A stretch of DNA of 64,000 bases from Candidatus Aminicenantes bacterium (GTDB lineage Bacteria; Acidobacteriota; Aminicenantia; JAMOAD01): positions 6,650 to 70,649 of the forward strand of contig JAMOVU010000172.1 of NCBI GenBank assembly GCA_027067555.1. The letters are read 5' to 3'. The notes under the pieces are model-generated. The model made no database searches. It had not been told where the DNA came from and saw only the letters and a list, made by a program, of their open reading frames with translations. The translations under genes and the position numbers were made by a program. This document shows positions 16,177 to 34,245 of the stretch, piece after piece. Numbering within the stretch: the stretch's first letter is position 1; each line of letters opens with the position of its first letter.

Positions 16177-17469
16177 ATGAAAAAGTCTTTATCTCTATTT
16201 ATTTCTTCCCTTTTAATTTTTGGCTTAATTACAAGTTTTGCGCTTGCGGGGCACCACAAGGACAAGGTCAAGTATGTAAAGTATGTTCCAGACAAAGTGA
16301 TTAAGGAGATGATTGATCAGGACAAAGCAAAAGCTAAGAAAGAGAGAGAGAAAACAGCTGCAATAATTAAGAAGATTAAAGAGCAGAAGAAGAAAGAGAG
16401 AGAGAACAGAAAAATTATAAGATTTGATGTTTCAAAGATTAAAAAACCTGCGTCTCCTAAAGTTTTTAAACAGGTATGGCACAATCCCCCCGTTGCGCAG
16501 TATTTAACCGGTACATGCTGGGATTTCTCTGCAACCTCTTTTATGGAGTCTGAAATTTACAGGATTACGGGACAGAAGATGAAACTTTCTGAAATGTTTA
16601 CTGCTTATTATGAGTATGTTGAAAAAGCCAAAGGTTTCGTAAGAACCCGGGGAAATTCTGTTTTTGGTCAGGGTTCTGAGTCAAATGCTTTGATAAGGAT
16701 CTGGAAAAAGTATGGAATTGTTCCTGAGAGTGTTTATAGGGGTGTTCTCAGAAAAGACGGAAGACACGATCATTCGCAAATGTATAAAGAAATGAAGAAT
16801 TTCTTGAATTTCGTAAAATCAAATGGATATTGGGATGAAAATGAAGTAGTAGCCCACATAAAAATAATTTTGAATAAGTATATGGGAGAACCTCCCAAAA
16901 CTTTTACATACAAAGGTAAAACATATACTCCGAAGAGTTTTCTTAAGGATGTTGTGAAGATAAACCTTGATGATTATGTTGGTTTTATGTCCACAGAATC
17001 CATCCCATTTTATACAAAAGGTGAGTTTAAAGTGGAAGATAATTGGTGGCATAGTAAGGATTATTATAATGTACCCCTTGATGTTTTTTATAAAATAATC
17101 AAAAGAGCTATAAAGAATGGATATTCTTTGACTATTGGCGGAGATGTTTCCGAACCCGGGTATTATGGAGAGGAAGATATAGCTGTTGTGCCAACATTTG
17201 ATATACCATATGAATACATTAACCAGGATTCCAGAGAGTTCAGAATATATAACCGTACAACAGGAGATGATCATGGTATTCATCTGATTGGCTATACAAG
17301 AGTTGGGGGGAGAGATTGGTTTCTTATTAAGGATTCTGCAAGAGCAGCAAGAAGGGGCAAGTTTAAAGGTTATCTTTTTTACAGAGAAGATTATGTTAAA
17401 TTAAAAATGCTAACTATAATGCTACACAAAGATGCAGTAAAAGATATATTGGCAAGATTTAAAAAGTAG
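16177..17469 (+). CDS. C1-family cysteine peptidase (aminopeptidase C / bleomycin hydrolase-like), secreted
   Basis: True start ATG 16177 after GGAGG; signal peptide; QYLTGTCWDFSA catalytic Cys region, His/Asn downstream. Confidence 0.8.
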   Translation: MKKSLSLFISSLLIFGLITSFALAGHHKDKVKYVKYVPDKVIKEMIDQDKAKAKKEREKTAAIIKKIKEQKKKERENRKIIRFDVSKIKKPASPKVFKQVWHNPPVAQYLTGTCWDFSATSFMESEIYRITGQKMKLSEMFTAYYEYVEKAKGFVRTRGNSVFGQGSESNALIRIWKKYGIVPESVYRGVLRKDGRHDHSQMYKEMKNFLNFVKSNGYWDENEVVAHIKIILNKYMGEPPKTFTYKGKTYTPKSFLKDVVKINLDDYVGFMSTESIPFYTKGEFKVEDNWWHSKDYYNVPLDVFYKIIKRAIKNGYSLTIGGDVSEPGYYGEEDIAVVPTFDIPYEYINQDSREFRIYNRTTGDDHGIHLIGYTRVGGRDWFLIKDSARAARRGKFKGYLFYREDYVKLKMLTIMLHKDAVKDILARFKK

Positions 17470-17515
17470 TCAATTTTAGATTGACTATTATGTAAAAATT
17501 TGATATAAAATATGC

Positions 17516-17589
17516 GGGCCTGTAGCTCAGTTGGCTAGAGCAGCCGGCTCATAACCGGCCGGTCACAGGTTCGAGTCCTGTCAGGCCCA
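17516..17589 (+). tRNA. tRNA-Met (anticodon CAU); elongator type, or tRNA-Ile2 if lysidinylated
   Basis: Cloverleaf by eye: acceptor GGGCCTG/CAGGCCC, D-arm GCTCAGTTGGCTAGAGC, anticodon stem GCCGG-CTCATAA-CCGGC, T-arm ACAGGTTCGAGTCCTGT, discriminator A; G1-C72 so not initiator. Confidence 0.85.
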
Positions 17590-17608
17590 TTTATCAAGGA
17601 GAGAAAAA

Positions 17609-18325
17609 TTGATCAGTCAAATCAGTGAGTTGATTAAGCTTCAAGATGTTGATAAGGAAATAATAAAGACCAAAAAAAAATTAAAAGAATTCCCGAAAAT
17701 TTTAAAAGAAATTAATGACAAAATAGAAAAAAGCATACAAATAGTGGAAGAGGCCAAAGAAAAATTAAAGAAAAACCAGATATTAAGAGATAAATTGGAG
17801 CTTGAAGTTGAAGATTTAAAGGGAAAAATTGATAAGAAAAAAACAGAGCTTAATTCAATAAAGACGAACAAAGAATATACTGCTATGATTAGTGAAATTG
17901 AACTTTTGGAGAAGAAAAAGGAAGAGGCTGAGGAGAAAGTAATTGCTTCTTTACTTGAGACAGATGAAATTCAGGAAGAAATAAAAAAAGCGGAAGAGGA
18001 AAGAGCCAAAGTAAAAGGCGTTTATGAAAAAGAAAAAGAAGAAGTTATCCAAAAACAAAAAGATGTGGAAGTTTACTTAAAGGAGTTGGAAGAAAAAAGA
18101 AAAAAGATTGCTTCTGAAATAGATGAAGAATACCTTAAACTTTATGAAGATCTGGGAAAAACCAAAGGCGGCATTCCTTTGTCTAAGGTTGTTGATGGTT
18201 TTTGCTCCGAATGTTATATGAAAGTAAGGCCCCATGTAATAGTTGAATTGAAGAAAGGTAAGGATATAGTTACCTGTGAGAATTGCGGAAGAATTCTCTA
18301 TCTTGAGGTAGAGGTAAAAGAATAG
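17609..18325 (+). CDS. coiled-coil protein with C-terminal C4 zinc ribbon (COG1579-like)
   Basis: Long KE-rich coiled coil then CSECYMKV...CENCGRIL; probable TTG start. Confidence 0.65.
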   Translation: MISQISELIKLQDVDKEIIKTKKKLKEFPKILKEINDKIEKSIQIVEEAKEKLKKNQILRDKLELEVEDLKGKIDKKKTELNSIKTNKEYTAMISEIELLEKKKEEAEEKVIASLLETDEIQEEIKKAEEERAKVKGVYEKEKEEVIQKQKDVEVYLKELEEKRKKIASEIDEEYLKLYEDLGKTKGGIPLSKVVDGFCSECYMKVRPHVIVELKKGKDIVTCENCGRILYLEVEVKE

Positions 18326-18326
18326 C

Positions 18327-20105
18327 TTAATCCAAAAGCATGGAAACAGAATCTTCAAGTTTTAAAATTTTTTCTCTCCTTGATTGTTCATTAAGGGAAT
18401 TATAATAATTACTTTTTTTGAATAAAAAATATAACTCCTGAAAGGCTGAGAGAAAATTTCTGTTTTTTATGTTTTCTATTATTTTATAATTTTTTTCAGG
18501 ATTAAAAGCCCCGGTAAGAGTTTCATCCTCGGGCCTTTCTATTTTTATCAGTGGATAATTATATTTATTGTTAATTTCTGATTTAAGAATGCCCCTTAAA
18601 ACCAATCCTTTAAAATTTTTCTTTTTTACTTTTAAGTAAGAGGGCGTATATGGATAGGGTATAAGATAAGAGCTTGTTGGCAAAATTTCAAATAGTTTGA
18701 ATTCCTTCACTAATTCCCACAGAATAAAAAACTCTTCAAAAAATTCATCCCATGTTGAATCTCTATCAAGAATTATCCAATAGTGATAGTTTAAAACTCC
18801 ATTTTCTTCGAATAATTTTACAATTTCTTTGAAATTTTTTGAGGATAATTTTTGTTTTCCCAATCTTTTTCTTCTCTTTTCCGAAAAAGCATCTGTCCCC
18901 AGCCAGAGAAGGGGAGAGCTAACATATAATGATTTGTCTCCTATTATTTTAATTAGAGATTCTTTTATTTCTCCGTTTTTTTCTACAAAACTGCTTAATG
19001 ATGTTTGAAACCCGTAAATTTTATAATTATTTTTTTTAATTGTATTTATAATCTCTTTTATTTTCTTATCAGCCAGAAGTATATCATCATCATTTATATT
19101 AATAAAAAAAGCAGAGGGTTCTTTTATTTTTTCTTTTTCTATTGTTTTTTTGTGTTTTTTTAATAATAAATCCAATCTTTGAGGAGATATAATCCTAAAA
19201 TTTCTTCCGTGAACATGGGAACAAAAAATACAGGAGCGGGGGCATCCCCTTGAAAGGTTAAGCTCCAATCCTCTTTTGAGCATTCCCTTTTCTATTAAAC
19301 TAAAATCTATTTCTATTGAGTTAATATTTGCTAATCTATTTGTTCTTTCTATATTTGATAGAATAAAATAATTATCATCATTATAAAAAAAACCTTCAAA
19401 TTCGGAAGCTTTGTTGAATATTGAGAGCAGAGTATTTTTGTCTATATTAACAATAAATCTTAATAGTTTGCTTATTTTTTCCTCTGCCTCTCCTCTGTAA
19501 AGGAAATTAATAAAGTCAAAATGTGCGATTGCCGGAATAGGGGAGAGAGTTGGGAAAGGGCCTCCGATTCCGATAATTCCTTTGTATGTTTTTCTTAGTT
19601 CTTTTAAATAATTTAAAGCTTTTGGAATAAGATCATCAAAAAGTGTAAATCCCCAGATTTTGTTATTATTTTGGGGAATGGATGATATTTCAAGGTCAAG
19701 AATTGATAGTTTTGTTGGTATTTTTGATTTTAAAGTTTTACTTCCAAGATAGAGAATTGAAGAGGGATAAGGCATATCTTTCCATCTTGAGTCAAAAATA
19801 GAGGAAAAAAAGGAAAAAGTTATGCTTGGTTTCTCAGTGCACTGAAAAATTTTTTCTTTTGTTTTATCAAAGCTTTCATAGATTTCTCTTTTTACTAAGA
19901 AAATACCATTTGAAGTATTTAATTTTAACTGCTTCCCCTCTGACAAGGGAGGTTCTATTATCCCGCCTTTTAAGTTATCTTTGTTTAATTCTTTTATAAT
20001 TTCAAGGTATTCTTCATTTTTTAATTTTATTTTTTTACTTTTTTTTATAACCCAGACTCCTCTGTAATCATACGGATTCGGTAATTGTGAGGGAATCTCT
20101 TTCAT
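18327..20105 (-). CDS. B12-binding-domain radical SAM protein with about 140-aa N-terminal extension
   Basis: LSRGCPRSCIFCS (CxxxCxxC) preceded by a Rossmann-like IIGIGGPFPTL...YRGEAEE segment typical of class B radical-SAM B12-binding domains. Confidence 0.65.
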   Translation of the reverse strand: MKEIPSQLPNPYDYRGVWVIKKSKKIKLKNEEYLEIIKELNKDNLKGGIIEPPLSEGKQLKLNTSNGIFLVKREIYESFDKTKEKIFQCTEKPSITFSFFSSIFDSRWKDMPYPSSILYLGSKTLKSKIPTKLSILDLEISSIPQNNNKIWGFTLFDDLIPKALNYLKELRKTYKGIIGIGGPFPTLSPIPAIAHFDFINFLYRGEAEEKISKLLRFIVNIDKNTLLSIFNKASEFEGFFYNDDNYFILSNIERTNRLANINSIEIDFSLIEKGMLKRGLELNLSRGCPRSCIFCSHVHGRNFRIISPQRLDLLLKKHKKTIEKEKIKEPSAFFININDDDILLADKKIKEIINTIKKNNYKIYGFQTSLSSFVEKNGEIKESLIKIIGDKSLYVSSPLLWLGTDAFSEKRRKRLGKQKLSSKNFKEIVKLFEENGVLNYHYWIILDRDSTWDEFFEEFFILWELVKEFKLFEILPTSSYLIPYPYTPSYLKVKKKNFKGLVLRGILKSEINNKYNYPLIKIERPEDETLTGAFNPEKNYKIIENIKNRNFLSAFQELYFLFKKSNYYNSLNEQSRREKILKLEDSVSMLLD

Positions 20106-20125
20106 AAAATGTTTTTAATTTTAAA

Positions 20126-20758
20126 TTAGTTAACCGATTTATTCTCTTCTATAACCTTTCTTATCTGTTCGAAAACATCGGAAAAGCTTTCAATTAAAGG
20201 TATTAATTCATACTCAATTATATCAGCTGCTTCCACATCATCTCTTCTTTGCTGGGCATTATTGAATGTTTCAAAAATTTTATTTAAATTTTGGAATTTT
20301 TCCGCAACAGTTGTTCCATCACTTAGTGTAAGTTTGTTTAGATCAAATTTGTAAAGATTGTGTAGGTTTATAAAAAGAGTAATAATTAACTTAATCCCTT
20401 CAAGTCCTCCGTTTATGGCTTGATTCTTTTTCTCTGTTTCCCCTGTTCTTAAAAATTCCGCTGCTCCGTTTAAGATTTTTATAAGATCCGGTATGAATTT
20501 TTTTACATTATCAATTCCGCTTTCCGCTATTTCTGAGATTTTTCTTGTTGTAATTTCTATTTTAGATATTTTATCAGGTGTTTTGTCAAATTGTGTTCCG
20601 GAAATAATAGATGTTATATCTTCCCCATCCGCAGTAATTTTTGCTATTCCTCGTAGGTGTTTCCCGGCTTCTGCGTAGATTGCTTGCAAAAGCTCATCCC
20701 ACTTTTCCAAATTGCCATTGAATTGAAAAGGCTCCCCATCCAGATAAATTTCGGGCAT
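20126..20758 (-). CDS. hypothetical soluble protein (no recognisable domain)
   Basis: 210 aa, no TM, no motif recognised; positioned between GT2 and radical-SAM genes on same strand with 20-bp and 10-bp gaps. Confidence 0.35.
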   Translation of the reverse strand: MPEIYLDGEPFQFNGNLEKWDELLQAIYAEAGKHLRGIAKITADGEDITSIISGTQFDKTPDKISKIEITTRKISEIAESGIDNVKKFIPDLIKILNGAAEFLRTGETEKKNQAINGGLEGIKLIITLFINLHNLYKFDLNKLTLSDGTTVAEKFQNLNKIFETFNNAQQRRDDVEAADIIEYELIPLIESFSDVFEQIRKVIEENKSVN

Positions 20759-20768
20759 AATACCTCCT

Positions 20769-22256
20769 TTATTTTGCTAATTTAAGGCTTTTCTTTCGTA
20801 ATAAATATAGCTTTATATCTTCTGAAAAAGACAAAAGTGCCATGTATAAATAACCAAATTGGAATATTAAAAGGAAAGGTATTGTAAGATAGATTCCTTT
20901 CTGAATTGAAACTATGACTGTTATTGTAAAATATATTCCAAAGAGAAGCTCTATGAATGGAAGGTAACCCATTTTGGATTTGTATTTTTTATTTGTAATG
21001 TCTTCTCCTGATTTTTTCACCCCGTATTTAGGTGTTCTCACGAATTCTGAATCTTTGCTGTCAAACAATCCCTGCCAAACTGCTATTGCATTATTAACAG
21101 ATAAGCCTATTCCTATTGCAGAAACAAATGGAAGGTACTTAATTTTTCTACTCCACTTTTTTAATACCTGCTTTTGAGCAAAAAAGTAGAAACTTGAAAA
21201 TGAAAATGTTGCAAGTAAGAGAAATGGAATATCTATTAGAATCATTTGGTCCCAGTTGAGATTTCTTCTGATTATTACGGTTGGGAAAATGGCTATTGAT
21301 AGGGGAATCATAAAAAGATAAGCTATATTTGCGCATAAATGAAAAAAAGCTTCCAATTTTATTTTTAATGGAAGATTTGATTTTATAATCCTGGGCATAA
21401 GTTTTTTACCTGTTTGGATAGCTCCTTTAGCCCAACGATGTTGTTGTGTTTTAAAAGCTTTTATGCTTACAGGAAGCTCTGCCGGTGAGATTAGATCAGG
21501 GATATAAACAAATTCCCAGCCTTTCATCTGAACCCTGTAACTTAGATCAAGATCCTCTGTTAGAGTATCATGCTGCCAGCCACCACCATCAATTATAGCC
21601 TGTTTCCTCCAGATCCCTCCGGTTCCGTTAAAATTAAAAAATCTTCCCGATCTGTTTCTTACTGTATGCTCAAGTACAAAATGTCCATCAAGAAGAATTG
21701 ATTGAACCTCTGTGAGAAGAGAGTAGTTTCTGTTTATATGTCCCCATCTTATTTGGACCATACCTACTTTGGGGTCTGTAAAATAGTGTATGGTTTTCTT
21801 CAAAAATTCCGGTGGGGGAATAAAATCAGCATCAAATATTGCAAAGAATTCATACTTTGCAATATTCATCCCATTTTCAAGGGCACCTGCCTTATAGCCT
21901 TTTCGATCCTCTCTGTGAATATGTTTTATGTCGAATCCCTCTTTTTTATATCTTTCTACAACCTTCGCAACTAAATCTTTTGTTTCATCCGTGGAATCAT
22001 CGAGGACTTGAATTTCTAATTTTTCTTTCGGATAATCAAATTTACATACCGCATCTATTAATCTTTCAGCAACATACATTTCATTGTAAAGCGGAAGTTG
22101 AACTGTAACTCCCGGAAGTTCTTTAAATTTACCTTTGGGTTCTTTCCTGTCATTACGGTGTTTCCAGTAAAGGTAGAGTAAATAGTATCTATGCGCACCA
22201 AATACAGATAAAATCAACAAGAGTATAAAATAAAAAACAAGTATTGCAATATCCAT
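20769..22256 (-). CDS. family 2 processive glycosyltransferase (cellulose/chitin synthase-like, membrane-integrated)
   Basis: D,D,D and QQHRW (QxxRW) motifs, N-terminal TM plus about 4 C-terminal TM helices. Confidence 0.8.
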   Translation of the reverse strand: MDIAILVFYFILLLILSVFGAHRYYLLYLYWKHRNDRKEPKGKFKELPGVTVQLPLYNEMYVAERLIDAVCKFDYPKEKLEIQVLDDSTDETKDLVAKVVERYKKEGFDIKHIHREDRKGYKAGALENGMNIAKYEFFAIFDADFIPPPEFLKKTIHYFTDPKVGMVQIRWGHINRNYSLLTEVQSILLDGHFVLEHTVRNRSGRFFNFNGTGGIWRKQAIIDGGGWQHDTLTEDLDLSYRVQMKGWEFVYIPDLISPAELPVSIKAFKTQQHRWAKGAIQTGKKLMPRIIKSNLPLKIKLEAFFHLCANIAYLFMIPLSIAIFPTVIIRRNLNWDQMILIDIPFLLLATFSFSSFYFFAQKQVLKKWSRKIKYLPFVSAIGIGLSVNNAIAVWQGLFDSKDSEFVRTPKYGVKKSGEDITNKKYKSKMGYLPFIELLFGIYFTITVIVSIQKGIYLTIPFLLIFQFGYLYMALLSFSEDIKLYLLRKKSLKLAK

Positions 22257-22330
22257 TAGCTAAGTATTTTAAACTTAATTAATGCTTTTGTCAATTTTTC
22301 TGCCTGTTTTATTGATATTTTGTGCTCTTT

Positions 22331-23683
22331 TCAGAAAACATATGTTAGCAAAATTACAAATAGAACTACAGGTACAAAGTATTTGATAAATATCTTCCAC
22401 AAACCGGCAAGTTTAAACTTTTTTCCGTTTTTGGTAATTTCTTTTATAGCTTTATCTGCTCCCCACACATATCCAACAAATATAGTTATTAGGAAACCTC
22501 CTAAAAGAAGTGAGATATTTCCCCATAAAAGATCCATTATTGAAAGAAAATCTTTCTTAAAGATGGGAAGGTTTGAAAAAAAGTTTCCCTTTACATTTGC
22601 CAATATTGATGGAACTCCAAAAATAAAGGAGAGAACTCCTACTGCAATGGCCGCTTTTTTTCTCTTCCACTTTTTTTCATCTATTAGATAAGCAACAGGT
22701 ACCTCCAGCAGAGAGATAGTTGATGTTAAAGCTGCTATTACCAGAAGTAAAAAGAAGAGGAAACCAAAAATAGCTCCCCCTGGAATTTTTGAAAAGACTA
22801 CAGGAAGAACAATGAAAACCAGAGCCGGACCCTGCTGAGGACTCATTCCAGGAATTGTGAATAAAGTAGGAAAAATTACAAGACCTGCTATAATGGCAAC
22901 AAATGTGTCCAATGAAACTACCCATAGAGCCGAGGATGGCAAATAATCTTCATCAGATATATAACTCCCATAAGTCATAATAGTTCCCATTCCAAGAGAG
23001 AGTGAAAAAAATGCCTGAGTGATTGCAAATAAAATAACCCTTGAATTTATTTTTGTGAAATCGGGTTTTAAGTAAAAGGCAAGTCCTTTTGAAGCTCCTT
23101 CAAAAAGTACAGCCCTTATTGAAAGATAAATAAGTATAATAAATAACATGGGCATTAGGATTTTTGTTAATTTCTCTATTCCCCCTTTTATTCCCAATGA
23201 TACGACAAGTACAGTTATTAAGATAAAAAGAGAAAATAGAATAAGATTTAGTCCTATATTGGAAGAAAAGTGAACAAACATATTTTGAACAAACTCTTCG
23301 GTTAATTTATGGGAGAAATCTCCTCTTATAGACTTTACTGCATATCCGAGAGTCCATCCCGCAATAACTCCGTAGTAAGAGAGAATCATGACTGCCGTAA
23401 AAACTCCAAGGATCCCCACCAAAAACCATGGGCCCTTAGGCTTAATTTGTTTAAAAGCTCCGACAGGATTCTTTTTTGTCATCCTTCCCATTGAGACTTC
23501 TGCTAAAAAAACCACAAGTCCGATTAAGAAAACCGCTATTAAATAAACAAAAACAAAGGCTGCTCCACCATTCATTCCTGTTTGATAGGGAAATCGCCAG
23601 ATATTTCCCAATCCAACAGCAGAACCAGCTGCTGCAAAAATAAAGGCTACCTTTGAGCCCCAGCCACCTCTTTCGTTTTTCAT
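22331..23683 (-). CDS. neurotransmitter:sodium symporter (NSS/SNF) family transporter
   Basis: GLGNIWRFPY signature, 12 TM. Confidence 0.85.
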   Translation of the reverse strand: MKNERGGWGSKVAFIFAAAGSAVGLGNIWRFPYQTGMNGGAAFVFVYLIAVFLIGLVVFLAEVSMGRMTKKNPVGAFKQIKPKGPWFLVGILGVFTAVMILSYYGVIAGWTLGYAVKSIRGDFSHKLTEEFVQNMFVHFSSNIGLNLILFSLFILITVLVVSLGIKGGIEKLTKILMPMLFIILIYLSIRAVLFEGASKGLAFYLKPDFTKINSRVILFAITQAFFSLSLGMGTIMTYGSYISDEDYLPSSALWVVSLDTFVAIIAGLVIFPTLFTIPGMSPQQGPALVFIVLPVVFSKIPGGAIFGFLFFLLLVIAALTSTISLLEVPVAYLIDEKKWKRKKAAIAVGVLSFIFGVPSILANVKGNFFSNLPIFKKDFLSIMDLLWGNISLLLGGFLITIFVGYVWGADKAIKEITKNGKKFKLAGLWKIFIKYFVPVVLFVILLTYVF

Positions 23684-23833
23684 CTTTTTCTCCCGAAATT
23701 AATTTGTTCATAATTGTAAAATATTATTGTAATTTTTTCAAAAACTTTTTTTCTCCTAATTTTACTAAAGAGAAGATTATTGACAAATTCTCTCTCTTTA
23801 AGTAAGATATAGGACTTTAATTGGAGAATTCAG

Positions 23834-24190
23834 ATGGGCCTTTCCCAGAGTTTTATTAAAAGAATGAAAAAAAAGTTGGAAAAAAGAAGAGAAGAAATTT
23901 TGGAAACATTGGAAGATCTTATTAAAAGGTCCAGTTCAGATAATGATATGGCAATGGATGAAGGGGATAAATCTCTTATTCATTACAGTCTTCACTATCT
24001 TTCCCAGCTTTCCGCAAGAGAGCTTAACACCTATAAGGCAATTGATGTAGCCCTTAAAAAAATTGAAAATGGGACTTACGGGGTGTGTGAGCACTGCGGG
24101 AAAGAGATAAATCCTAAGAGAATAGAAGCTATCCCTTGGGCCAAGTACTGTGTTGAATGTCAGGAAAAAATAGAAAAGGGCTATATCTGA
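23834..24190 (+). CDS. DksA/TraR-family C4 zinc-finger protein
   Basis: C-terminal CEHCGKEI...CVECQ four-Cys finger preceded by coiled-coil; TTGACA-17-TAAGAT promoter upstream. Confidence 0.65.
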   Translation: MGLSQSFIKRMKKKLEKRREEILETLEDLIKRSSSDNDMAMDEGDKSLIHYSLHYLSQLSARELNTYKAIDVALKKIENGTYGVCEHCGKEINPKRIEAIPWAKYCVECQEKIEKGYI

Positions 24191-24861
24191 TAAAAAGGAT
24201 TTTATCAACTCTTCTTAATCTTGTTTATCCTTCTTATTGTAAATTATGCGGAAAAAAGTTAAAATCAGAAGAGCGAATTGTTTGTGGTGATTGTATTGAA
24301 AAACTTAATCATTTCCGTTTTAGAGAGCCTTTAATTAAACTTGATGAGAACTCTGTTTTATATTCATTTTTTATTTTTGAGGACACTGTAAAAGATTTTA
24401 TTCATCTTTTCAAATACTATGGTTATATCCCTGTAGGTAAAAAGATGGTTGAACTGGTGGAAGAAAAGTATGAACTCTCTTTTTTAAAAAATTATGATTA
24501 TTATCTTCCCGTACCCCTTCATAAAAAAAGATTAAGAGATAGAGGGTTTAATCAGGCGGAGCTTATAGGTGAGTGGCTTTTTGAGAAGCGAAATGTTGAA
24601 AAATTGGCCTTTCTGGAAAGAATAAAAAGAGGGCTGCCCCAGGCTTCTTTGACAAAAGCGGAGAGAACCAGGAATATAAAAGGTAGTTTTGTTTTGAAAG
24701 ATGCTTTGAAAAACAGGGAAGTTTTTAAGGGTAGAAATGTTTTGGTGATTGATGATATTCTAACAAGCGGAGCAACTTTTTTTGAAATAAGAAAAACGCT
24801 TACTCCTTTGGAATTCAATAGGATTGATATCCTGACTTTATCAACACCTCGTAAATCTTAA
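24157..24861 (+). CDS. comF: ComF-family phosphoribosyltransferase (competence protein ComFC-like)
   Basis: N-terminal CxxC..CxxC zinc finger then PRTase motif VLVIDDILTSGATF. Confidence 0.75.
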   Translation: MSGKNRKGLYLIKRILSTLLNLVYPSYCKLCGKKLKSEERIVCGDCIEKLNHFRFREPLIKLDENSVLYSFFIFEDTVKDFIHLFKYYGYIPVGKKMVELVEEKYELSFLKNYDYYLPVPLHKKRLRDRGFNQAELIGEWLFEKRNVEKLAFLERIKRGLPQASLTKAERTRNIKGSFVLKDALKNREVFKGRNVLVIDDILTSGATFFEIRKTLTPLEFNRIDILTLSTPRKS

Positions 24862-24897
24862 ACTTTACTTATTTTCCTTTTTCTGTTATAAAATTCG

Positions 24898-27222
24898 ATG
24901 AAAAAAACATTGCTTGTTTTTCTATTATTCAGTTTTTTTTCTTTATCTTTTTTTTATGGAAATGAAGGAAATGGTAATGAAAATTATCAGATTGATAATT
25001 TATTACTTTCTCTGCTTCCCGGTGGAAATTTCCTGAACTCTTCGTTTGAAAATTTTTTCCCGACAACTACTTTTTTGATAGAGGAAAGCAATGGTTTCTC
25101 TTTGCTGGATTTAAGCAAGGTATACTTTGAAGGGGAATCCCCATTAAATTTTAAATTTTACATTGAAGATTTTTATGCAAGCTCTACTCTGAATCCAGGC
25201 ACAAATTCAATTTTGGCTCCTTTACTTAATATTTATGATTATCACTTGAGAACATCGGATAATTTAAAATCCGGCTTTGATTTGGATATAAGCAAAAATA
25301 TTGATTTGAACAGATTCTATTTTTCGTCTGTTTATACTGATCTTGGCTCATTTCCTGATTTTGCAACATCTCTTATGAATAAACATCCTTCCACGAGGGA
25401 TGATAAACTTTACTATACGAGAAGAAAACTACTTTCAAACAATATTATTGGATTTTCAAAAGACATTGATTTAAACAGCTCCAACCTTTTTGTTTCTTTT
25501 TCTTATGTTAATTTAAAAAGACAATTCAATGATTTCTCAAAAGAGAAAGATTCTGTTTTTAATGAAAGGGGGGAACTATTTTCCTTTCTCTCTCTTTATA
25601 AAAAATCCTTTGATAATTCTACTTTGAAAATTATTACAGCTTTAAACAAAAGATTCAGGGATCATCTGAATTCTGAGTTTGGAAGATTACCTTCGGAAAC
25701 TTTTGGAAATAGCTATTTTTCTTTTTTAACAGGTTTTCTTTACAAGGGAGAAAATTATTTTATTAAAAATTCATTTCTATATGAGAGTGAAAACAGGACT
25801 CCTGATTTTTCTTACTATGAAAAGGATATGATGGATAATGATGGTGATGCAATTTATCTTTTTGATAGGTTTGGTAAATTTGGGGCTTTTACAATTTCGG
25901 TTGATGGGGAAAAGAGATTTGATATTAGTAAAAATTTTGATTTCTATTTTTTCTCTATAAATAGATTAACTTTTATTAAGGGAGATGAAGGAGATTATGG
26001 GAACTCTTTGCTTTTGTTTGGTGGAACTCCTTTGTATAATGTAGTATGGAGAGCCGGAGAGAAATATTCTAATACAAAGACTCAATTATTATTGGGGACT
26101 GCTTTTAATTATATAATAACGGATTTTTTAACCCTTCAAGGCAGACTGTATATTAAATCATCCCTTTTGGGGTTTGAAAACAGGGAAAATAATCTGGTTC
26201 TTAGCGGGGGGGCTTTTGACCTTAAAGCTATACTGTTTAAAGGGAAAAGGGCAGAGTTTTTAATTTATTATGGGCGGAAACCTCAGGATATAAACGAGAC
26301 TCTAAACTTTTTTCTTGAGGCACGGAGACCCTCCGGAACCTTTTATGATTTAAAGGGAGAGACTATCTCATATACCGGCGGCTCTTACCATAGTGTTTCA
26401 AGTGATATAAAGACTCCGTACGAAAAAAGGTTTATTATTTCATCTATAATCAATTTATCAAAGGTTTTTAAATTAAAAATAAGAGGACTTTATGTTCAAT
26501 TTCTTAATAATCTCTGGGTTAATTATGAAGATTATGATGGTTATTATAAAAGAGTAGATGGTTTTAACCTCTATTTCCCTAAAAAAGCCTCGTATTATAA
26601 TTTTTCAAATTATGAATTTGATAAGAACCCGTTTTATGCTGAGTTTATGCTTCATCTTTTTGGTAGAAAAGAGAAAAAATGGTTTTTTTCATTTTCATTT
26701 ATGGCGCATATGGGGATGGGATACACTGCTTTTGGAAATGGGCCGGTTTACAATGATATAGGTTATATTGATGAAAGTATGGCAAATCCAAACACATGGA
26801 TAAATGGATATGGCAGAGTGGATGGGGATAGAGCTTTTGTCGGAAGAATACTGTTTGGAATCTATCTTACTAAAAATCTTAGTTTGGGAGCAAATATTAA
26901 GTACAGGGATGGTGAACCCTTTGCGTTTATAAAGTATTATATTGATAATGGAAGACTTGCTCTTTACTATCCTCACATACAGGCAGAGGATGAAAGAGGT
27001 GTAAAAGGGGGGCCTCGTGAGGATTGTATCTGGGATATGAGTTTTAAAATTAATTATTCTCTCGAATTTGGCAAAAGAAAAGCAAATGTTTTTATCTCCT
27101 TTTTTAATATTCTTGATGTTGGAGCAGAACTTTCGGAATATGTTTTTACTCCTGATAGAAGAGATGCTGTTGAGCTTCAAATACCGAGAAGTTTAAGATT
27201 TGGCCTGGAATATATCTTCTAA
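24898..27222 (+). CDS. large predicted outer-membrane protein (signal peptide, beta-rich, C-terminal ...RFGLEYIF)
   Basis: Signal peptide MKKTLLVFLLFSFFSLSFFYG; amphipathic beta-strand-like repeats with Tyr/Phe; terminal Phe as in OM beta-barrels. No specific family recognised. Confidence 0.5.
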   Translation: MKKTLLVFLLFSFFSLSFFYGNEGNGNENYQIDNLLLSLLPGGNFLNSSFENFFPTTTFLIEESNGFSLLDLSKVYFEGESPLNFKFYIEDFYASSTLNPGTNSILAPLLNIYDYHLRTSDNLKSGFDLDISKNIDLNRFYFSSVYTDLGSFPDFATSLMNKHPSTRDDKLYYTRRKLLSNNIIGFSKDIDLNSSNLFVSFSYVNLKRQFNDFSKEKDSVFNERGELFSFLSLYKKSFDNSTLKIITALNKRFRDHLNSEFGRLPSETFGNSYFSFLTGFLYKGENYFIKNSFLYESENRTPDFSYYEKDMMDNDGDAIYLFDRFGKFGAFTISVDGEKRFDISKNFDFYFFSINRLTFIKGDEGDYGNSLLLFGGTPLYNVVWRAGEKYSNTKTQLLLGTAFNYIITDFLTLQGRLYIKSSLLGFENRENNLVLSGGAFDLKAILFKGKRAEFLIYYGRKPQDINETLNFFLEARRPSGTFYDLKGETISYTGGSYHSVSSDIKTPYEKRFIISSIINLSKVFKLKIRGLYVQFLNNLWVNYEDYDGYYKRVDGFNLYFPKKASYYNFSNYEFDKNPFYAEFMLHLFGRKEKKWFFSFSFMAHMGMGYTAFGNGPVYNDIGYIDESMANPNTWINGYGRVDGDRAFVGRILFGIYLTKNLSLGANIKYRDGEPFAFIKYYIDNGRLALYYPHIQAEDERGVKGGPREDCIWDMSFKINYSLEFGKRKANVFISFFNILDVGAELSEYVFTPDRRDAVELQIPRSLRFGLEYIF

Positions 27223-27314
27223 CCCTCAAGTCATTTTTTTGCATAAAAAATTAAATTTTGTCAAAAAACAGACACCTCTTGGCAAAGAATCATTTTTTTA
27301 CCATACTATTATAG

Positions 27315-27330
27315 TGGCACGCTTTTTGAT
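27315..27330 (+). promoter_or_regulatory. candidate sigma54 (-24/-12) promoter upstream of flgB
   Basis: TGGCACGctttTTGA: GG and the -12 element spaced as in the TGGCACG-N4-TTGC consensus, but -12 GC is GA here. Confidence 0.3.
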
Positions 27331-27366
27331 ACTTTTTTATGTGAATAATAGTGTGAGAGGTAAAAG

Positions 27367-27777
27367 ATGAGTTTAATAAAGAGTGAAAGTTTAACGATAC
27401 TTGAAAAATTTTTGGACTTGAGTCTTAAAAAACACAGTGTAATAGCATCAAATATTGCAAATGCTAATACTCCGAACTATAAAGCGAGGGAAATGGATTT
27501 TGAAGAGGCTTTCAAACAAGCTCTCGGAGAGGGAGAAGACGGAGTTTCCTTAAAAACCACAAATCCCAAGCACCTTTCTGATGCCAATTCAGTGGAAAAT
27601 CTTTCACCTGCGGTGGAAATTTCTTCCGCTCCTGCAAGACCCGATGGTAATAATGTAAACATGGAAAAGGAGATGGTAAAATTAACGGAAAATAATATCA
27701 CTTATAACCTTGGGGTCCAGTTGATTAGTAAACGGCTTAAGGAAATAAGGCTTGCGATAACTTCGGATAGGAGGTAA
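27367..27777 (+). CDS. flgB: flagellar basal-body rod protein FlgB
   Basis: N-terminal rod-protein motif SNIANANTPNYKA, first gene of the rod operon. Confidence 0.9.
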   Translation: MSLIKSESLTILEKFLDLSLKKHSVIASNIANANTPNYKAREMDFEEAFKQALGEGEDGVSLKTTNPKHLSDANSVENLSPAVEISSAPARPDGNNVNMEKEMVKLTENNITYNLGVQLISKRLKEIRLAITSDRR

Positions 27778-27779
27778 AA

Positions 27780-28226
27780 ATGAGCGGACACTTTACTATT
27801 TTTGATATAGCTGCTTCCGGTCTTTCGGCTGAGTTGAAGAGAATTCAAGTTATTTCAACTAACATAGCAAATGTAAATTCAACCAGAACCCCGGAGGGAG
27901 GACCTTACCGAAGAAAGGATGTAATCTTTGAGGCAACAAATATAGATAAAGATAGTTTTGAAAATATTCTAAACTCTGCTGTTTCAGAAGAGGATGCCGT
28001 TGGGGTTGAAGTAAAGGAGATCTACAATGACCCTTCCCCTTTTATTAAAAAGTATGATCCTCAACACCCTGATGCTGACCAGAATGGATATGTTTCATAT
28101 CCCAATGTTAATGTTGTAACAGAGATGGTAAATTTAATGAATGCATCAAGAAGTTATGGTGCAAATGTAACTGTAATACAATCGCTTAAAAATATGATAT
28201 CAAAAGCATTTGATATCGGGAGGTAA
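27780..28226 (+). CDS. flgC: flagellar basal-body rod protein FlgC
   Basis: SGLSAELKRIQVISTNIANVNSTRT and C-terminal SYPNVNVVTEMVNLMNASRSYGAN. Confidence 0.9.
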   Translation: MSGHFTIFDIAASGLSAELKRIQVISTNIANVNSTRTPEGGPYRRKDVIFEATNIDKDSFENILNSAVSEEDAVGVEVKEIYNDPSPFIKKYDPQHPDADQNGYVSYPNVNVVTEMVNLMNASRSYGANVTVIQSLKNMISKAFDIGR

Positions 28227-28228
28227 TT

Positions 28229-28546
28229 ATGTCAGATCCTAAAATAACGGATTATTCTAAGATTATTCAACAAATAGAGAAGGGGATTTCCATTGACAAG
28301 GCACAAAAAGCTGATAAGGATAAAGAAGGTAATTTTGCAAACCTTCTAAAAGAGGCTATAAATGAAGTTTCAAAGGTTGAAAAAAATGCTGATGAAGAGA
28401 TAAAAAAGGTAGTTACCGGGGAAGAGAAAAACATTCACAAAACATTGATAGCGGTTGAAAAAGCAGATCTTTCTTTTCAACTTATGATGGAAATAAAAAA
28501 TAAGTTAATGGATGCATATAATGAATTAATGAGAACAAGGATATAG
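28229..28546 (+). CDS. fliE: flagellar hook-basal body complex protein FliE
   Basis: 105 aa, position between flgC and fliF, FliE-like C-terminus. Confidence 0.8.
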   Translation: MSDPKITDYSKIIQQIEKGISIDKAQKADKDKEGNFANLLKEAINEVSKVEKNADEEIKKVVTGEEKNIHKTLIAVEKADLSFQLMMEIKNKLMDAYNELMRTRI

Positions 28547-28554
28547 GGTGAAAA

Positions 28555-30189
28555 ATGCCAAACATACTAACTCAAATAAGAAGCCTGTTTAGTAATTTAT
28601 CAACATCTCAAAAAATATTTTTTGTTGCTGTTGTTTTGATTGTTTTCGGGGGGCTTGTTGGGCTTGTTATGTGGGCAAACACTCCTGAGTATGCTGTACT
28701 TTACTCTAACATCAGTGATGAGGATGCTTCTTTGATTATACAGAAGCTAAAGGATATGAAGGTAAAATATAAATTAAGCGGAAATGTCATTAAGGTTCCT
28801 CAGAATAAGGTAAATGAACTGAGAATAAACCTTGCTGCAATGGGATTACCCAAAGGAGGAGGAGTTGGGTTTGAAGTTTTTGATAAATCAAAGCTCGGAA
28901 TGACGGAATTTATGGAAAAAATAAATTATTTGAGAGCCCTTGAAGGGGAGCTTAGTAGAACCATATCATCCATTAAAGAGGTAAAATCTGCTAAAGTTCA
29001 CCTTGTCCTGCCAAAGAGATCAGTTTTTTTGGAAGAGAGAGAGCCTGCCAAAGCTTCTATAGTTCTAAATGTGTACCCGGGCGCAGCGCTTTCAAAATCC
29101 ACAATAGGGGCAATAGTTCATTTAGTCTCTTCAGCTGTTGAAGGCTTATCTCCTCAGAATGTAACTATAGTGGATGTTTACGGAAGACTGCTTGCTTCCT
29201 CTGAAACGGAAAGTGAGGATGCAAAGTTAAATTCCAGACAACTTGAAATTAAGGAAAAGGTTGGAAGAGAGATGGCAAAAAGAATAGTTGCTCTTCTTGA
29301 ACCGATTGTTGGAATCGGCAAGGTTAGGGCAAGTGTTGTTGCTGATCTTGATTTTACAAAAAAGGAAAAGGTGGATGAGATATATGACCCCAATGTGCAG
29401 ATTGAGAGAAGTGAGAAGAGCGAAATTCAAAAAACAACCGAAGGGACTCAGGGTGGAACACCGGGGGTTGGCTCCAATGTTGCTGGTAATACGACACAAA
29501 CAGCCGGGGGTACAACAAAAACAAGTGAAATAAAAAAAGAGGTAAAAAATTATGAGATAAATAAAACAGTTTTAAAAACAGTCTTTCCTTCCGGAGAAAT
29601 TAAAAGATTATCTGTCTCTGTTCTTGTTGATGATGCTGTGAAAATTGAAAAAAAAGGAAAGGAAATCATTGAAAAAAAAGTTCCCCGAACTCCCCAGGAA
29701 CTTGATAAAATAAAAAAGTTAGTTGCTGCTGCTGTAGGGATTGATGAGAAGAGAGGAGATTTGCTTGAGGTCGCAAATCTTTCTTTTGATGAGACATATA
29801 AGATAGAATCCGAAAGATATATGAAAGCTCAGGAGAGTAAAAAGTTTATGGCTACTGCCATTAAATATGGAGTTATTTTGATTCTTGCCCTTGCTCTTAT
29901 ATTTTTGATTCTAAAACCAATGATGAAAAAGGTTACAGTTGCTATAGAAAAGGGCAAGGCGCTTCCGGAAGGTGGGATTACTGTTGGTGAGATAGAGGGA
30001 AAAGAGATGCCTCCTCAATTGGGTGAAGCTGAGGAAAGAGAGCAGCTTGAAAAAGAAATTGAAAGCCAGTATAAGCCACCAAAGGAAGCAAAAAAGATTG
30101 AAATTATCAGGGAAAAGCTTCAACAGTTTGCAAGTGAAAATACGGATGATCTTGTAGCTATTATCAGAAGTATGCTTCTGGAGGAATAA
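28555..30189 (+). CDS. fliF: flagellar MS-ring protein FliF
   Basis: N-terminal TM, YscJ/FliF ring domain, second TM near C-terminus, 544 aa. Confidence 0.9.
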   Translation: MPNILTQIRSLFSNLSTSQKIFFVAVVLIVFGGLVGLVMWANTPEYAVLYSNISDEDASLIIQKLKDMKVKYKLSGNVIKVPQNKVNELRINLAAMGLPKGGGVGFEVFDKSKLGMTEFMEKINYLRALEGELSRTISSIKEVKSAKVHLVLPKRSVFLEEREPAKASIVLNVYPGAALSKSTIGAIVHLVSSAVEGLSPQNVTIVDVYGRLLASSETESEDAKLNSRQLEIKEKVGREMAKRIVALLEPIVGIGKVRASVVADLDFTKKEKVDEIYDPNVQIERSEKSEIQKTTEGTQGGTPGVGSNVAGNTTQTAGGTTKTSEIKKEVKNYEINKTVLKTVFPSGEIKRLSVSVLVDDAVKIEKKGKEIIEKKVPRTPQELDKIKKLVAAAVGIDEKRGDLLEVANLSFDETYKIESERYMKAQESKKFMATAIKYGVILILALALIFLILKPMMKKVTVAIEKGKALPEGGITVGEIEGKEMPPQLGEAEEREQLEKEIESQYKPPKEAKKIEIIREKLQQFASENTDDLVAIIRSMLLEE

Positions 30190-31208
30190 TGGGAAAGTTA
30201 AAATATGAAAATCTTACAAATTTGCAAAAAATTGCTATTTTAATGGTTATTTTGGGAGATGAGATAACATCCAAGGTTTTTAGTAGATTGGATGAAGAGG
30301 AAATAGCGGATATAAGCAGGGAAATTACCCTTTTGGGTCCCATTCCCGCTGAAGTATCTGAGAGAATAATGGAGGAGTTTTACAATATGGCAATCGCAAA
30401 GCAGTATATTGCCATAGGTGGGATTGAATATGCGAAAAGTGTTTTGATAAAGGCACTGGGTCCTGATCAGGCAAGGAAAATAATAGATAGATTGGTGAAA
30501 CTTCTCGAAAAATCCGTGGGATTTGCCTCTCTTGAAAAAGTCAATCCCCAGCAAATATCAAAATTTATCCAGAATGAGCATCCGCAAACAATAGCTCTCA
30601 TCCTTGCTCACCTTTCGGCATCAAGGGCAGCAGAGCTACTTGAATCTTTACCCGAAGATATTAGAGCTGAGATAGCTATAAGGATGGCAAATCTTGAGGA
30701 GATATCTCCGGATATAGTGAAAAAAATATCTTCTGTATTAGATCAAAGGCTTCAGTCGCTTGGCTCATATAAACTTGAAGAATACGGAGGAGTGAAGGCT
30801 GTAGCAGATCTTCTTAATAGAATGGAAAGAAGAGTTGCAAAACAAATTCTTGAGCAGATAGAGGTTAAAAATCCTGAACTTGCTGTTCAGGTTAGAGATA
30901 TGATGTTTGTTTTTGAAGATATACTTTTAATAGATGATCATGGTGTTGCTGAAATCTTAAAGAGAGTTGATAAAAAAAGCCTTGCAATTGCACTTAAAGG
31001 GGCTTCTGATGAGCTTAAGGAAAAATTCTTCAGAAATATGTCTCAAAGGGCTGTTGAGATGTTAAAGGAAGAAATGGAGTACATGGGACCGATAAGAGTT
31101 AAGGATGTTGAAAAAGCTCAGCATGAGATAGTTGAGGTTGTAAGAGAGCTTGAAGAGGAAGGAGTTGTTTCCATTGGAGGAGGTGGTGGTGAAGAGTATA
31201 TTGTATAA
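30189..31208 (+). CDS. fliG: flagellar motor switch protein FliG
   Basis: LQKIAILMVILGDE..., MFVFEDI and EHPQTIALILAHL motifs. Confidence 0.9.
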   Translation: MGKLKYENLTNLQKIAILMVILGDEITSKVFSRLDEEEIADISREITLLGPIPAEVSERIMEEFYNMAIAKQYIAIGGIEYAKSVLIKALGPDQARKIIDRLVKLLEKSVGFASLEKVNPQQISKFIQNEHPQTIALILAHLSASRAAELLESLPEDIRAEIAIRMANLEEISPDIVKKISSVLDQRLQSLGSYKLEEYGGVKAVADLLNRMERRVAKQILEQIEVKNPELAVQVRDMMFVFEDILLIDDHGVAEILKRVDKKSLAIALKGASDELKEKFFRNMSQRAVEMLKEEMEYMGPIRVKDVEKAQHEIVEVVRELEEEGVVSIGGGGGEEYIV

Positions 31209-31926
31209 AGTTATTAAAAAAGAAGAACAGGATAAGTTTAAAATAGAAGACTTTTCCTTTGAGAATTTTGTTAAAGAGCAGTTAAAGAAAAGCGATGAAG
31301 AGGAAAGGAATGTTAAAGAGGACTCTATAAAGAAAAAAATGGAGGTTGAAAGGGATGGTGGAGAGAGTGTTGAGAAATTTAGTGCTGGACCTGTAGTGAG
31401 TGAGCATGAAAAACAGGAGCTTTTAAAAAAAGCATATGAAGAGGGTAAGGAAAAAGGATACAGGGAGGGTTTTGAAAAGGGAATGAAAGAAGCGGAAGAT
31501 AAAATAAAAAGTCTGATTGAGGAATACAAAAAAAGCTTGAGTTCACTTAATAGTTTAAGAGAAAAGATATACGAAGAAGCTCAAAGTGAAATGATTTTGA
31601 TAGTTAAAGAGGCTCTTAAAAAAATAGTTGCTGCTGAAATCAAAAGTAGTGAAGAGTTTATCTTAAATGTTATAAAGGAAACCATAAAAAATGTTGTGGA
31701 AACAAAAAAGATAGTAATAAAAGTTAGCCCTGAAGATTACAGATATCTTACGGAGAACAGGGATAAGGTTGACTCTTCTCTTTCAGGTAAGGAGATTGAG
31801 CTTGTTGAAGATCCTGCTATTACGCGGGGTGGATGCATTATTCAAACCGATATGGGAGAAATTGATTCAACTGTTGAAACAAAACTTGAAGAAGTTTTGA
31901 ATATCTTGGAAGAGAAAAATGAGTGA
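31150..31926 (+). CDS. fliH: flagellar export protein FliH (true start probably TTG about 31201, overlapping fliG stop)
   Basis: Coiled-coil N-half plus FliH C-terminal domain (GGCIIQTDMGEIDSTVETKLEEV); SD GGAGGAGGTGG inside fliG 3' end. Confidence 0.75.
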   Translation: MKRKELFPLEEVVVKSILYKVIKKEEQDKFKIEDFSFENFVKEQLKKSDEEERNVKEDSIKKKMEVERDGGESVEKFSAGPVVSEHEKQELLKKAYEEGKEKGYREGFEKGMKEAEDKIKSLIEEYKKSLSSLNSLREKIYEEAQSEMILIVKEALKKIVAAEIKSSEEFILNVIKETIKNVVETKKIVIKVSPEDYRYLTENRDKVDSSLSGKEIELVEDPAITRGGCIIQTDMGEIDSTVETKLEEVLNILEEKNE

Positions 31927-33235: not shown

Positions 33236-33671
33236 GTTTTCCCTTGATACTCTCCTGAAATACAGAATTAATATGGAAAAACAGAAAAAAGAAGAGTGGG
33301 CTAAGGCGAAGATGGAAAGAGTTAAGGCAGAGGAGAGACTTGAGCAAATTTACAGGGAGGAGCGGGAGAGAAGAGAGTATCTTGAAAGTTTAATGGAGGG
33401 AGAACTTGATTTGAGAATTTTTCAGCTTGTTCAAAGATACATAGGTCAGTTGATAAGACTTGAAAAAGTTCAGGCGAAGATTGTGGAAGAGAAAAAAAAG
33501 ATAGAATCTGAAAAACTTGAAGAATGGATAGAGGCTCGAAAAGCAAAAAAGGTTCTGGAAAATTACAGGGAAAAGAAATGGAAAGAGTATCTTTATGAAA
33601 TTGATAAAGAGGAACAGAAGATGGTTGATGATCTTTTTTTAAACTCCAAGAGGTTTGCCAATGAAAACTGA
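33222..33671 (+). CDS. fliJ: flagellar export chaperone FliJ
   Basis: 149-aa coiled-coil protein directly after fliI. Confidence 0.7.
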   Translation: MKRFKFSLDTLLKYRINMEKQKKEEWAKAKMERVKAEERLEQIYREERERREYLESLMEGELDLRIFQLVQRYIGQLIRLEKVQAKIVEEKKKIESEKLEEWIEARKAKKVLENYREKKWKEYLYEIDKEEQKMVDDLFLNSKRFANEN

Positions 33672-34245
33672 TTGCAGGATAAAGGTTTTAAAAGCGATGT
33701 TTATTTTTGCCCTTTTATTTTTTATCTTTCCTTTGAATTCGCAAAAAAATCAAGGAATAAATGGATCAACTGACATTGATAAAATAATAAAAGAGATAAA
33801 GAGTGAAAAAGAGTATTATTTGAGATGGTCAAAAATTTTAAAAAATAAAGAGGATGCTTTAAAACAGTGGGAAAACGAACTTGAAAGAAAGGCAAAAGAA
33901 CTGGAGAAGGAAAGAAAAAAGCTTAATGAGGAGTGGAAACAATTAGCCGAGGCGAGAAAAGCCAAAAAGGTTGATGTGAGAATTAAGAAAATCCTTGAAA
34001 CAGTTGAGCCTCAAGCGGCAATTGATAGTATTGTTCACTATTATAACACTGATAAAAAGATGTTTTATTCCATTGGTTTAAGTATCCTTACGATGAAAAA
34101 GGGAGTGAGAGTAAATATTCTACAAGGACTTTCAACTGCTCATAAACAGATTTTTATAGATTTAATAGATTTTTTAGCAAAACAGGCAGGATATAAAGAG
34201 AAAATGAAAGAATTAAAAAAGATAGGAGGTGGAGGAAATGGATAA
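33655..34245 (+). CDS. hypothetical flagellar-operon protein (YlxF/MotE-like position): N-terminal TM or signal segment plus coiled coil
   Basis: Occupies the fliJ-fliK slot as ylxF does in Bacillus-type fla operons; no motif recognised. Confidence 0.4.
   Translation: MPMKTDCRIKVLKAMFIFALLFFIFPLNSQKNQGINGSTDIDKIIKEIKSEKEYYLRWSKILKNKEDALKQWENELERKAKELEKERKKLNEEWKQLAEARKAKKVDVRIKKILETVEPQAAIDSIVHYYNTDKKMFYSIGLSILTMKKGVRVNILQGLSTAHKQIFIDLIDFLAKQAGYKEKMKELKKIGGGGNG

Follow-up and report, generated by a model that had tools for sequence, protein, structure and literature searches.

The window analysed here, a 64,000-nucleotide stretch of a Candidatus Aminicenantes contig (JAMOVU010000172.1), contains three consecutive genes on the minus strand. 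They encode a membrane glycosyltransferase of family 2 (GT2; 20769-22256, 495 amino acids (aa)) related to BcsA, PgaC and CslA, a soluble protein of the DUF8042 family (PF26154; 20126-20758, 210 aa) and a class-B-fold, that is cobalamin-type, radical S-adenosylmethionine (SAM) protein (18327-20105, 592 aa). Our best explanation, to which we give about an even chance as a whole, is that the triad forms a single transcription unit specific to one, probably Aminicenantes, clade, in which GT2 and DUF8042 constitute an envelope-glycan module and the radical SAM gene is co-transcribed but probably independent in function. The kinds of component are already known, and all three proteins fall outside the characterised equivalogs. 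An earlier note on this DNA had given the three minus-strand open reading frames (ORFs) with their gaps of 10 bp (GT2/DUF8042) and 20 bp (DUF8042/radical SAM) and their motifs; the coordinates and gaps agree exactly with the ORF list, and the motifs are present. As operon-like spacing is common in bacteria, it carries no significance by itself. The ORFs are real genes and not chance ORFs, because homologs were found for the triad proteins and the ratios of nonsynonymous to synonymous substitution (dN/dS) against the closest relative are low (GT2 0.025, DUF8042 0.028, radical SAM 0.12), values that indicate purifying selection on all three genes.

The glycosyltransferase and its proposed DUF8042 partner

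The catalytic motifs D, DxD, TED and QxxRW are all present in the GT2 protein (DDS86, DAD142, TED233 and QQHRW271), together with a gating-loop-like motif, FVRTPK405, which is similar but not identical to the FxVTxK of BcsA. Six hydrophobic segments resembling transmembrane (TM) helices are seen by hydropathy only (residues 1-24, 303-330, 338-358, 375-393, 430-452 and 455-473), and the protein is predicted to sit in the membrane, with TM helices on both sides of the catalytic domain. Its Pfam matches to GT2 families span 1e-22 to 1e-12, with Glyco_tranf_2_3 at 1e-22 and Glyco_trans_2_3 at 1e-21. The protein lies under every curated equivalog cut-off of NCBIfam, where PgaC_IcaA (TIGR03937) is the best match with 128.6 bits against a cut-off of 422.3 and CelA (TIGR03030) reaches 112 bits against 699.1. 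The best relatives of known structure in PDB are BcsA (72 bits) and an archaeal minimal cellulose-synthase-like GT2 (6yv7, 60 bits), with a ceramide glucosyltransferase at 39 bits. Motifs, profile and structure matches and TM-like segments thus agree with the QxxRW membrane synthase that had been proposed from the sequence. The protein is most likely a synthase-type beta-glycosyltransferase with a complete set of BcsA/PgaC-like motifs, and it is predicted to be processive.

The closest annotated relatives of GT2 come from plasmid or chromid records and are found on Pseudoalteromonas pPBSW1 (41% identity over 93% of the length) and on p2 of Caballeronia insecticola (39% identity). Both reside in exopolysaccharide (EPS)-type clusters with other glycosyltransferases, two polysaccharide deacetylases, an acetyltransferase and a heparinase II/III-like protein; neither of these two loci contains DUF8042 or a radical SAM gene of the window type. 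The product of GT2 is most likely an envelope polysaccharide, polymerised and exported by the enzyme, and less likely a glycolipid. A foreign origin of the GT2-DUF8042 pair finds no support in composition, as the GC content and the GC content at third codon positions (GC3) are within one standard deviation.

The middle protein had been taken for an orphan without a recognisable domain, but it belongs to PF26154 (DUF8042). This family is precomputed on relatives at 66-97% identity (PF26154.2 on P0001, which is 97% identical, and on P0002-P0004), and the window protein scores 229 bits against a hidden Markov model of 50 family members, built from an alignment that includes the window protein itself. 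A local Pfam scan of the protein and four relatives with E values up to 10 returned only GrpE/DnaJ noise, the PF26154 model apparently being missing there, and NCBIfam gave no match for the protein or for ten distant family members. Searched exhaustively with phmmer, a set of 1.84 billion cluster representatives yields a family of 230 proteins at E<=1e-3, nearly all of about 200 aa, and a word-indexed search with the family alignment added only three further distant members. The conserved core of the family is [LI][AS]D[LIV][LI]EYE[LM]xP plus R104, and the near-invariant residues R104, D173, D179 and E182-Y183-E184 are present in the window protein.

The AlphaFold (AF2) model of the DUF8042 protein, with a predicted local distance difference test (pLDDT) score of 96, consists of a small alpha/beta domain (residues 1-73) followed by a helical bundle (residues 74-209). 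Foldseek gave no match in PDB at E<0.01; at weaker scores, the helical part is similar to four-helix bundles in general (FliS ranks 45th), and the N-terminal part resembles ThiS/ubiquitin-like beta-grasp folds. A profile search against PDB sequences returned designed helical bundles only. Hydropathy detects no TM segment, which indicates a soluble protein.

Outside the window's clade, DUF8042 is a family of flagellar filament or glycosylation loci, in which it is typically encoded directly behind a glycosyltransferase gene. A metagenome scan with an 18-sequence DUF8042 alignment produced 80 loci, 70 of which are distinct distant members; the flagellar-type loci are metagenome contigs (examples lie in the series L081-L157, such as L106:6001-8051, L096 and L105). 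Flagellin, FliD or FliS is encoded in 25 of the 29 distant loci with at least 3 kb of downstream sequence, assignments that are confirmed by Pfam, and of the 33 loci with a length of 6 kb or more, 31 contain a filament gene or a GT9-like gene. The typical order is one or more glycosyltransferase genes, DUF8042, a FliT/FlgN-like helical protein of about 125 aa, flagellin, FliD and FliS. All eight of the upstream genes examined with Pfam encode GT9 and/or CgeB-like transferases (DUF3880 + Glyco_trans_1_2), and in three loci the transferase gene runs 4 nt into DUF8042. GT2 and radical SAM genes of the window type are absent from the 70 distant loci. No paper mentioning DUF8042 or its flagellar-locus association was found in a literature search, so that both this association and the partnership with a membrane GT2 are, on that search, undescribed.

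A radical SAM gene of any kind lies near DUF8042 in only about three distinct loci out of the 70, all of unrelated types, which rules out a general link between DUF8042 and radical SAM enzymes. One of these genes, just upstream of DUF8042 (L099:1425-5591), encodes a 1388-aa fusion of GT9, a DUF3880/CgeB-like transferase and a SPASM-type radical SAM domain; part of the same fusion is carried by L150.

In the window, the DUF8042 gene is preceded by a Shine-Dalgarno (SD) sequence, AGGAGG (20763-20768, minus strand, read directly from the sequence), which follows the GT2 stop codon without a gap and is separated from the DUF8042 ATG by 4 nt. DUF8042 is probably translationally coupled to the GT2 gene. 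No SD sequence precedes the start of the radical SAM gene, where 20 A/T-rich bases are read instead. Because the strong SD sequence couples DUF8042 to GT2 and none is found at the radical SAM gene, a pair is favoured over a triad as the functional unit.

In a neighbour-joining tree, all nine GT2-linked DUF8042 tips fall into one exclusive clade, whose closest neighbours come from flagellar loci; DUF8042 was thus probably recruited to GT2 only once. The most divergent GT2-linked member, found in a sister lineage (L076), is 38% identical to the window DUF8042, while its GT2 is 66% identical; here the order is GT2-DUF8042-MatE-ThyX, and GT2-DUF8042-MatE without a radical SAM gene is also seen in L077. 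In L076:96-4996, an IS110-family transposase lies upstream, and the MatE (MOP-superfamily) gene starts 7 bp after DUF8042 in the place of the radical SAM gene.

The functional core would be the pair, with GT2 polymerising and exporting an envelope polysaccharide and the cytosolic, two-domain DUF8042 protein acting as an adaptor or regulatory subunit of GT2. DUF8042, which elsewhere sits behind cytoplasmic GT9/CgeB-like transferases in flagellin-FliD-FliS loci, would have been recruited once to the membrane enzyme. The role of an adaptor or regulatory subunit is the most likely one in view of the family-wide gene order and the translational coupling. Of the suggestion that the middle gene provides a specificity or carrier factor, the accessory role next to a glycosyltransferase is consistent with the position of the family behind such genes. 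If the pair model is true, DUF8042 represents a new kind of soluble glycosyltransferase accessory subunit, and a family that comprises at least 230 sequence clusters and marks many flagellin-glycosylation islands would gain a function.

The arrangement resembles PgaC-PgaD, IcaA-IcaD and BcsA-BcsB, in which a membrane GT2 with D, DxD, TED, QxxRW and a gating-loop-like motif is likewise followed directly by the gene of a small partner. The partners in those systems are small membrane proteins (PgaD, IcaD) or periplasmic (BcsB), whereas the partner in the window is a soluble 210-aa protein with a beta-grasp-like domain and a helical bundle. The window GT2 is also far under the equivalog cut-offs and lacks a PilZ domain, and no PgaA/B-like export or modification genes are found near it. 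A further comparison can be made with FlmG, described as a modular flagellin glycosyltransferase that combines a flagellin-binding module of tetratricopeptide repeats with a glycosyltransferase module (PMC7591256). The likeness lies in the idea of a separate substrate-recruiting module that works with a glycosyltransferase, DUF8042 being typically encoded directly behind flagellar-locus transferases; by contrast, DUF8042 is a separate protein of a different fold, and its neighbour in the window is a membrane GT2 and not a cytosolic flagellin glycosyltransferase.

The radical SAM protein and its family

The radical SAM protein carries LSRGCPRSCIFC at residues 284-295, with the CxxxCxxC motif at 288-295. 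C288, C292 and C295 are invariant in 26 homologs and are the only conserved cysteines. Further invariants are specific to the family: D105-x-R107-W108, N336-x-x-D339-D340-D341 and W401-x-G403-T404-D405 (DxRW, NxNDDD and WLGTD). The window protein itself is below the Pfam thresholds, with 20 bits for Radical_SAM, and PF02310 (B12-binding) is precomputed on many of its homologs. In NCBIfam, only weak and partial matches are obtained, to BchE (49.3 bits against a cut-off of 481), HpnR (29.2 against 650), the ladderane B12-radical SAM family TIGR04072 (23.9 against 360), PhpK (20.4 against 600) and HpnJ (16.1 against 577.6).

The AlphaFold (AF2) model of the protein (pLDDT 90.9) aligns over both domains with all cobalamin-dependent radical SAM enzymes of known structure, at 10-16% identity. 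In the Foldseek search, OxsB ranks best (E 1e-18), followed by TsrM, TokK, CysS, MgmA and AprD4, with E values from 1e-18 to 1e-10. The model confirms a predicted class B fold, in which a Rossmann-like B12-binding domain precedes the radical SAM barrel; together with the invariant CxxxCxxC motif, this bears out, as regards the fold, the class B assignment made in the earlier note. The overall extent is similar to that of OxsB, the alignment spanning 722 columns. The two-domain core is shared with OxsB, TsrM, TokK, CysS, MgmA and the cobalamin-free AprD4, while the low identity and the family's own invariant motifs set the window protein apart from this group. As AprD4 has the same fold without cobalamin, the fold is no guarantee of cobalamin binding.

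Because only the three cluster cysteines are conserved, the protein is neither a methylthiotransferase nor of SPASM or Tes-like architecture. In the case of the methylthiotransferases (MiaB/RimO), the three extra conserved cysteines are missing and there is no UPF0004 or TRAM match. Membership of an unrelated characterised family such as these, which the earlier note had named as one case that would overturn its proposal, is therefore contradicted by both profiles and cysteines. Judged from its sequence, the protein fits no characterised family, and a literature search on Aminicenantes and radical SAM enzymes found nothing relevant.

A scan for the radical SAM family with one genome per species gave 70 loci, in which the gene occurs once per genome apart from genes split across two contigs. 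Most of them belong to Aminicenantes, which are known here from metagenome-assembled genomes and metagenome contigs only, and a few to Chrysiogenia, Deferrimicrobium, Omnitrophota and CSSED10-310. The protein thus defines an uncharacterised class-B-fold family, present once per genome and almost entirely restricted to Aminicenantes, and the locus gives little leverage on its substrate.

In every clade examined (the window and loci L019-L067), no gene of the neighbourhood evolves faster than the radical SAM gene. Compared with L007, it is 57% identical at the protein level, against 91% for GT2, which is the most conserved triad gene, 77% for DUF8042 and 80-86% for the flanking genes; its dN/dS of 0.12 stands against 0.025-0.035 for its neighbours. 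Compared with L001, the values are 84.6% for radical SAM and about 96% for the neighbours. It also has the lowest GC content of the 38 genes in the window (0.284, z = -2.1; GC3 0.231). Neofunctionalisation in the triad clade is ruled out as the cause of the fast evolution, which is a family trait and not the mark of a new function, because the same excess in rate is seen in every other clade examined.

Other clades of the family offer observations of their own. In one lineage, at 39% radical SAM identity, an upstream gene for a 243-aa protein (L164:5273-6004; putative Fe-S cluster domain PF04060, weak MobB matches) overlaps the radical SAM gene, and it is possibly a dedicated partner in that clade. 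In five loci of one Aminicenantes clade (L019, L030, L032, L036 and L067), an opposite-strand gene for a highly conserved 272-aa protein without Pfam match, 69-95% identical between genomes, lies upstream of radical SAM. There, genes for a CDP-alcohol phosphatidyltransferase and an ATP-binding cassette exporter also flank the gene, and DXS and IspA are encoded downstream. These neighbours hint, if faintly, at lipids or isoprenoids, a signal that we judge to be clade-specific synteny.

Synteny of the triad and alternative readings

Upstream of GT2, the 74-bp gap holds a promoter-like site, TTGACA-17-TAAAAT (22266-22294, minus strand, a consensus match only), which scores 11/12 and is the best sigma-70-like site in a 6.9-kb scan (17400-24300). 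It ends 9 nt before the GT2 ATG, so that the transcript is possibly leaderless. The same scan found no promoter-like or terminator-like site within the triad; a terminator-like hairpin with a T-run (18163-18181, minus strand, likewise a consensus match only) lies about 146 nt past the radical SAM stop, inside a convergent zinc-ribbon gene.

The triad is found in 8 of 74 radical SAM loci (L001-L008; the count adds four near-identical copies to the 70), all with radical SAM identity of at least 49%. Further look-ups recovered it in L162 (52%) and L163 (47%) and found it absent at 39-40% identity (L164 and L009); about 66 other loci of the family have neither GT2 nor DUF8042 nearby. In the window, the flanks consist of SNF-family transporter and zinc-ribbon genes; elsewhere, a Tricorn-like protease gene is seen together with TolB-like, AAA-ATPase or M14-peptidase genes. 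Synteny across related genomes supports the operon-like unit suggested in the earlier note. Three independent assemblies of one lineage (L159, L160 and L161; DUF8042 66% and GT2 about 96% identical) all break off 58 bp past DUF8042, at the expected start of the radical SAM gene, a pattern suggestive of strain-level heterogeneity or of a repeat.

Several of these observations speak for a closer tie between the three genes than the pair model assumes. The triad is intact in six lineages down to 47% radical SAM identity while both flanks change, which makes it a stable block, and the spacing between DUF8042 and radical SAM stays at 16-21 bp across the triad lineages. This persistence, the tight spacing and the absence of promoter- or terminator-like sites within the triad make co-expression likely, and GT2 and the radical SAM enzyme may be functionally linked. 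Precedents exist in the hopanoid head-group pathway, with HpnI (a GT2), HpnK and HpnJ (a radical SAM enzyme), and in the calditol synthase Cds, where a glycosyltransferase is combined with a radical SAM enzyme proposed to rearrange the transferred sugar (PMC13459092). The HpnI and HpnJ profiles match the window proteins only weakly (HpnI 52.6 bits against a cut-off of 310, HpnJ 16.1 against 577.6), no deacetylase, squalene-hopene cyclase or other hpn gene lies near the triad, and the comparative data do not tie the radical SAM protein to GT2. OxsB and AprD4, which are among the closest structural matches of the radical SAM protein, act on sugar-derived substrates. The binding of DUF8042 to GT2, for its part, is putative.

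These points would fit a three-component pathway, in which GT2 makes a glycan or glycolipid, the radical SAM enzyme modifies its sugar or lipid by C-methylation, ring contraction or dehydration, and DUF8042 delivers the substrate to either enzyme or to both. The single upstream promoter-like site and the L099 fusion of two transferases with a radical SAM domain right before DUF8042 could also be read in this sense. We nevertheless regard it as unlikely. The ancestral substrate of the radical SAM family cannot be the GT2 product, because neither GT2 nor DUF8042 accompanies the gene at about 66 loci, and conversely GT2-DUF8042 occurs with MatE and without radical SAM (L076/L077). In other clades the radical SAM gene adjoins the genes of thymidylate kinase (tmk), signal peptidase I (lepB) or Sua5, assigned by eye from representative sequences, down to 35-45% radical SAM identity; as it is equally stable beside these genes, the depth of the triad synteny, which does not exceed that with tmk or lepB, is not evidence of a shared pathway. 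More generally, clade-level synteny and tight spacing are insufficient to infer one. The fast evolution of the radical SAM gene adds nothing, being a family trait, and the radical SAM domain in L099 is of the unrelated SPASM type. The coupled GT2 and radical SAM chemistry put forward in the earlier note finds no backing in the same comparisons or in the EPS clusters of the closest annotated GT2 relatives, where both partners are missing. A more specific version of the linkage is still less probable: it takes DUF8042 for a widespread and hitherto unnoticed adaptor that couples glycosyltransferases, normally in the service of flagellin glycosylation, and was exapted to the membrane synthase in a single Aminicenantes clade, where it would link GT2 to the radical SAM enzyme for a radical rearrangement or C-methylation of a nascent glycan or glycolipid head group. 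Such a linkage would amount to a new type of envelope glycoconjugate pathway. In the pair model, the radical SAM gene would merely lie downstream in the same operon in the triad clade, encoding a phylum-wide enzyme that is probably independent of the GT2 product.

The overwhelming association of DUF8042 with flagellar filament loci raises the question whether the GT2-DUF8042 pair belongs to the flagellar system, for instance by supplying a glycan for the filament or for flagellar assembly. In the window, a divergent flgB-to-fliK operon has its start at a distance of about 1.6-5 kb, and the weak likeness of the helical bundle to FliS points in the same direction. However, the roughly 6 kb around the pair contain no flagellar gene in L008, L162, L163 or L076, the window contains no flagellin, FliD or FliS, and the proteobacterial GT2 relatives reside in EPS clusters. 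Known flagellin glycosyltransferases are cytosolic, and none is known to be a membrane synthase with QxxRW and a gating loop. A flagellar role of the pair is accordingly very unlikely in our judgement. Equally small is the probability we attach to a plain neighbourhood of three independent genes, in which DUF8042 only travels with GT2. This would agree with the putative status of the GT2-DUF8042 interaction and with the fact that DUF8042 partners structurally unrelated transferases (GT-B in flagellar loci, GT-A here), so that its real partner could be a different one. It accounts neither for the fact that GT2 and DUF8042 are adjacent throughout a monophyletic DUF8042 clade, even at 38% DUF8042 identity, nor for the SD sequence that overlaps the end of the GT2 gene, nor for the position of DUF8042 behind a glycosyltransferase across the family, in every upstream gene examined.

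Surroundings of the triad

The SNF-family transporter gene lies upstream of GT2 on the same strand. Downstream, the convergent zinc-ribbon gene, which is CT398-like, ends 1 bp from the radical SAM stop. Between it and a C1-like peptidase gene lies a gene for a methionine transfer RNA (tRNA-Met, anticodon CAT; 17516-17589, plus strand), which is the only match reported by an Rfam scan of the window; no riboswitch, including the cobalamin type, was found.

The genes divergent from the triad (23834-35332) encode a DksA/TraR zinc finger, a DZR_2 protein and a 774-aa protein, followed by flagellar genes in the order flgB, flgC, fliE, fliF, fliG, fliH, fliI, fliJ, an unassigned gene and fliK. The first three of them (23834-27222, plus strand), for the DksA/TraR-type zinc finger of 118 aa, the double-zinc-ribbon protein of 234 aa and the 774-aa protein without Pfam match, lie directly ahead of flgB and are possibly the first genes of the flagellar operon, which extends to fliK (about 35332).

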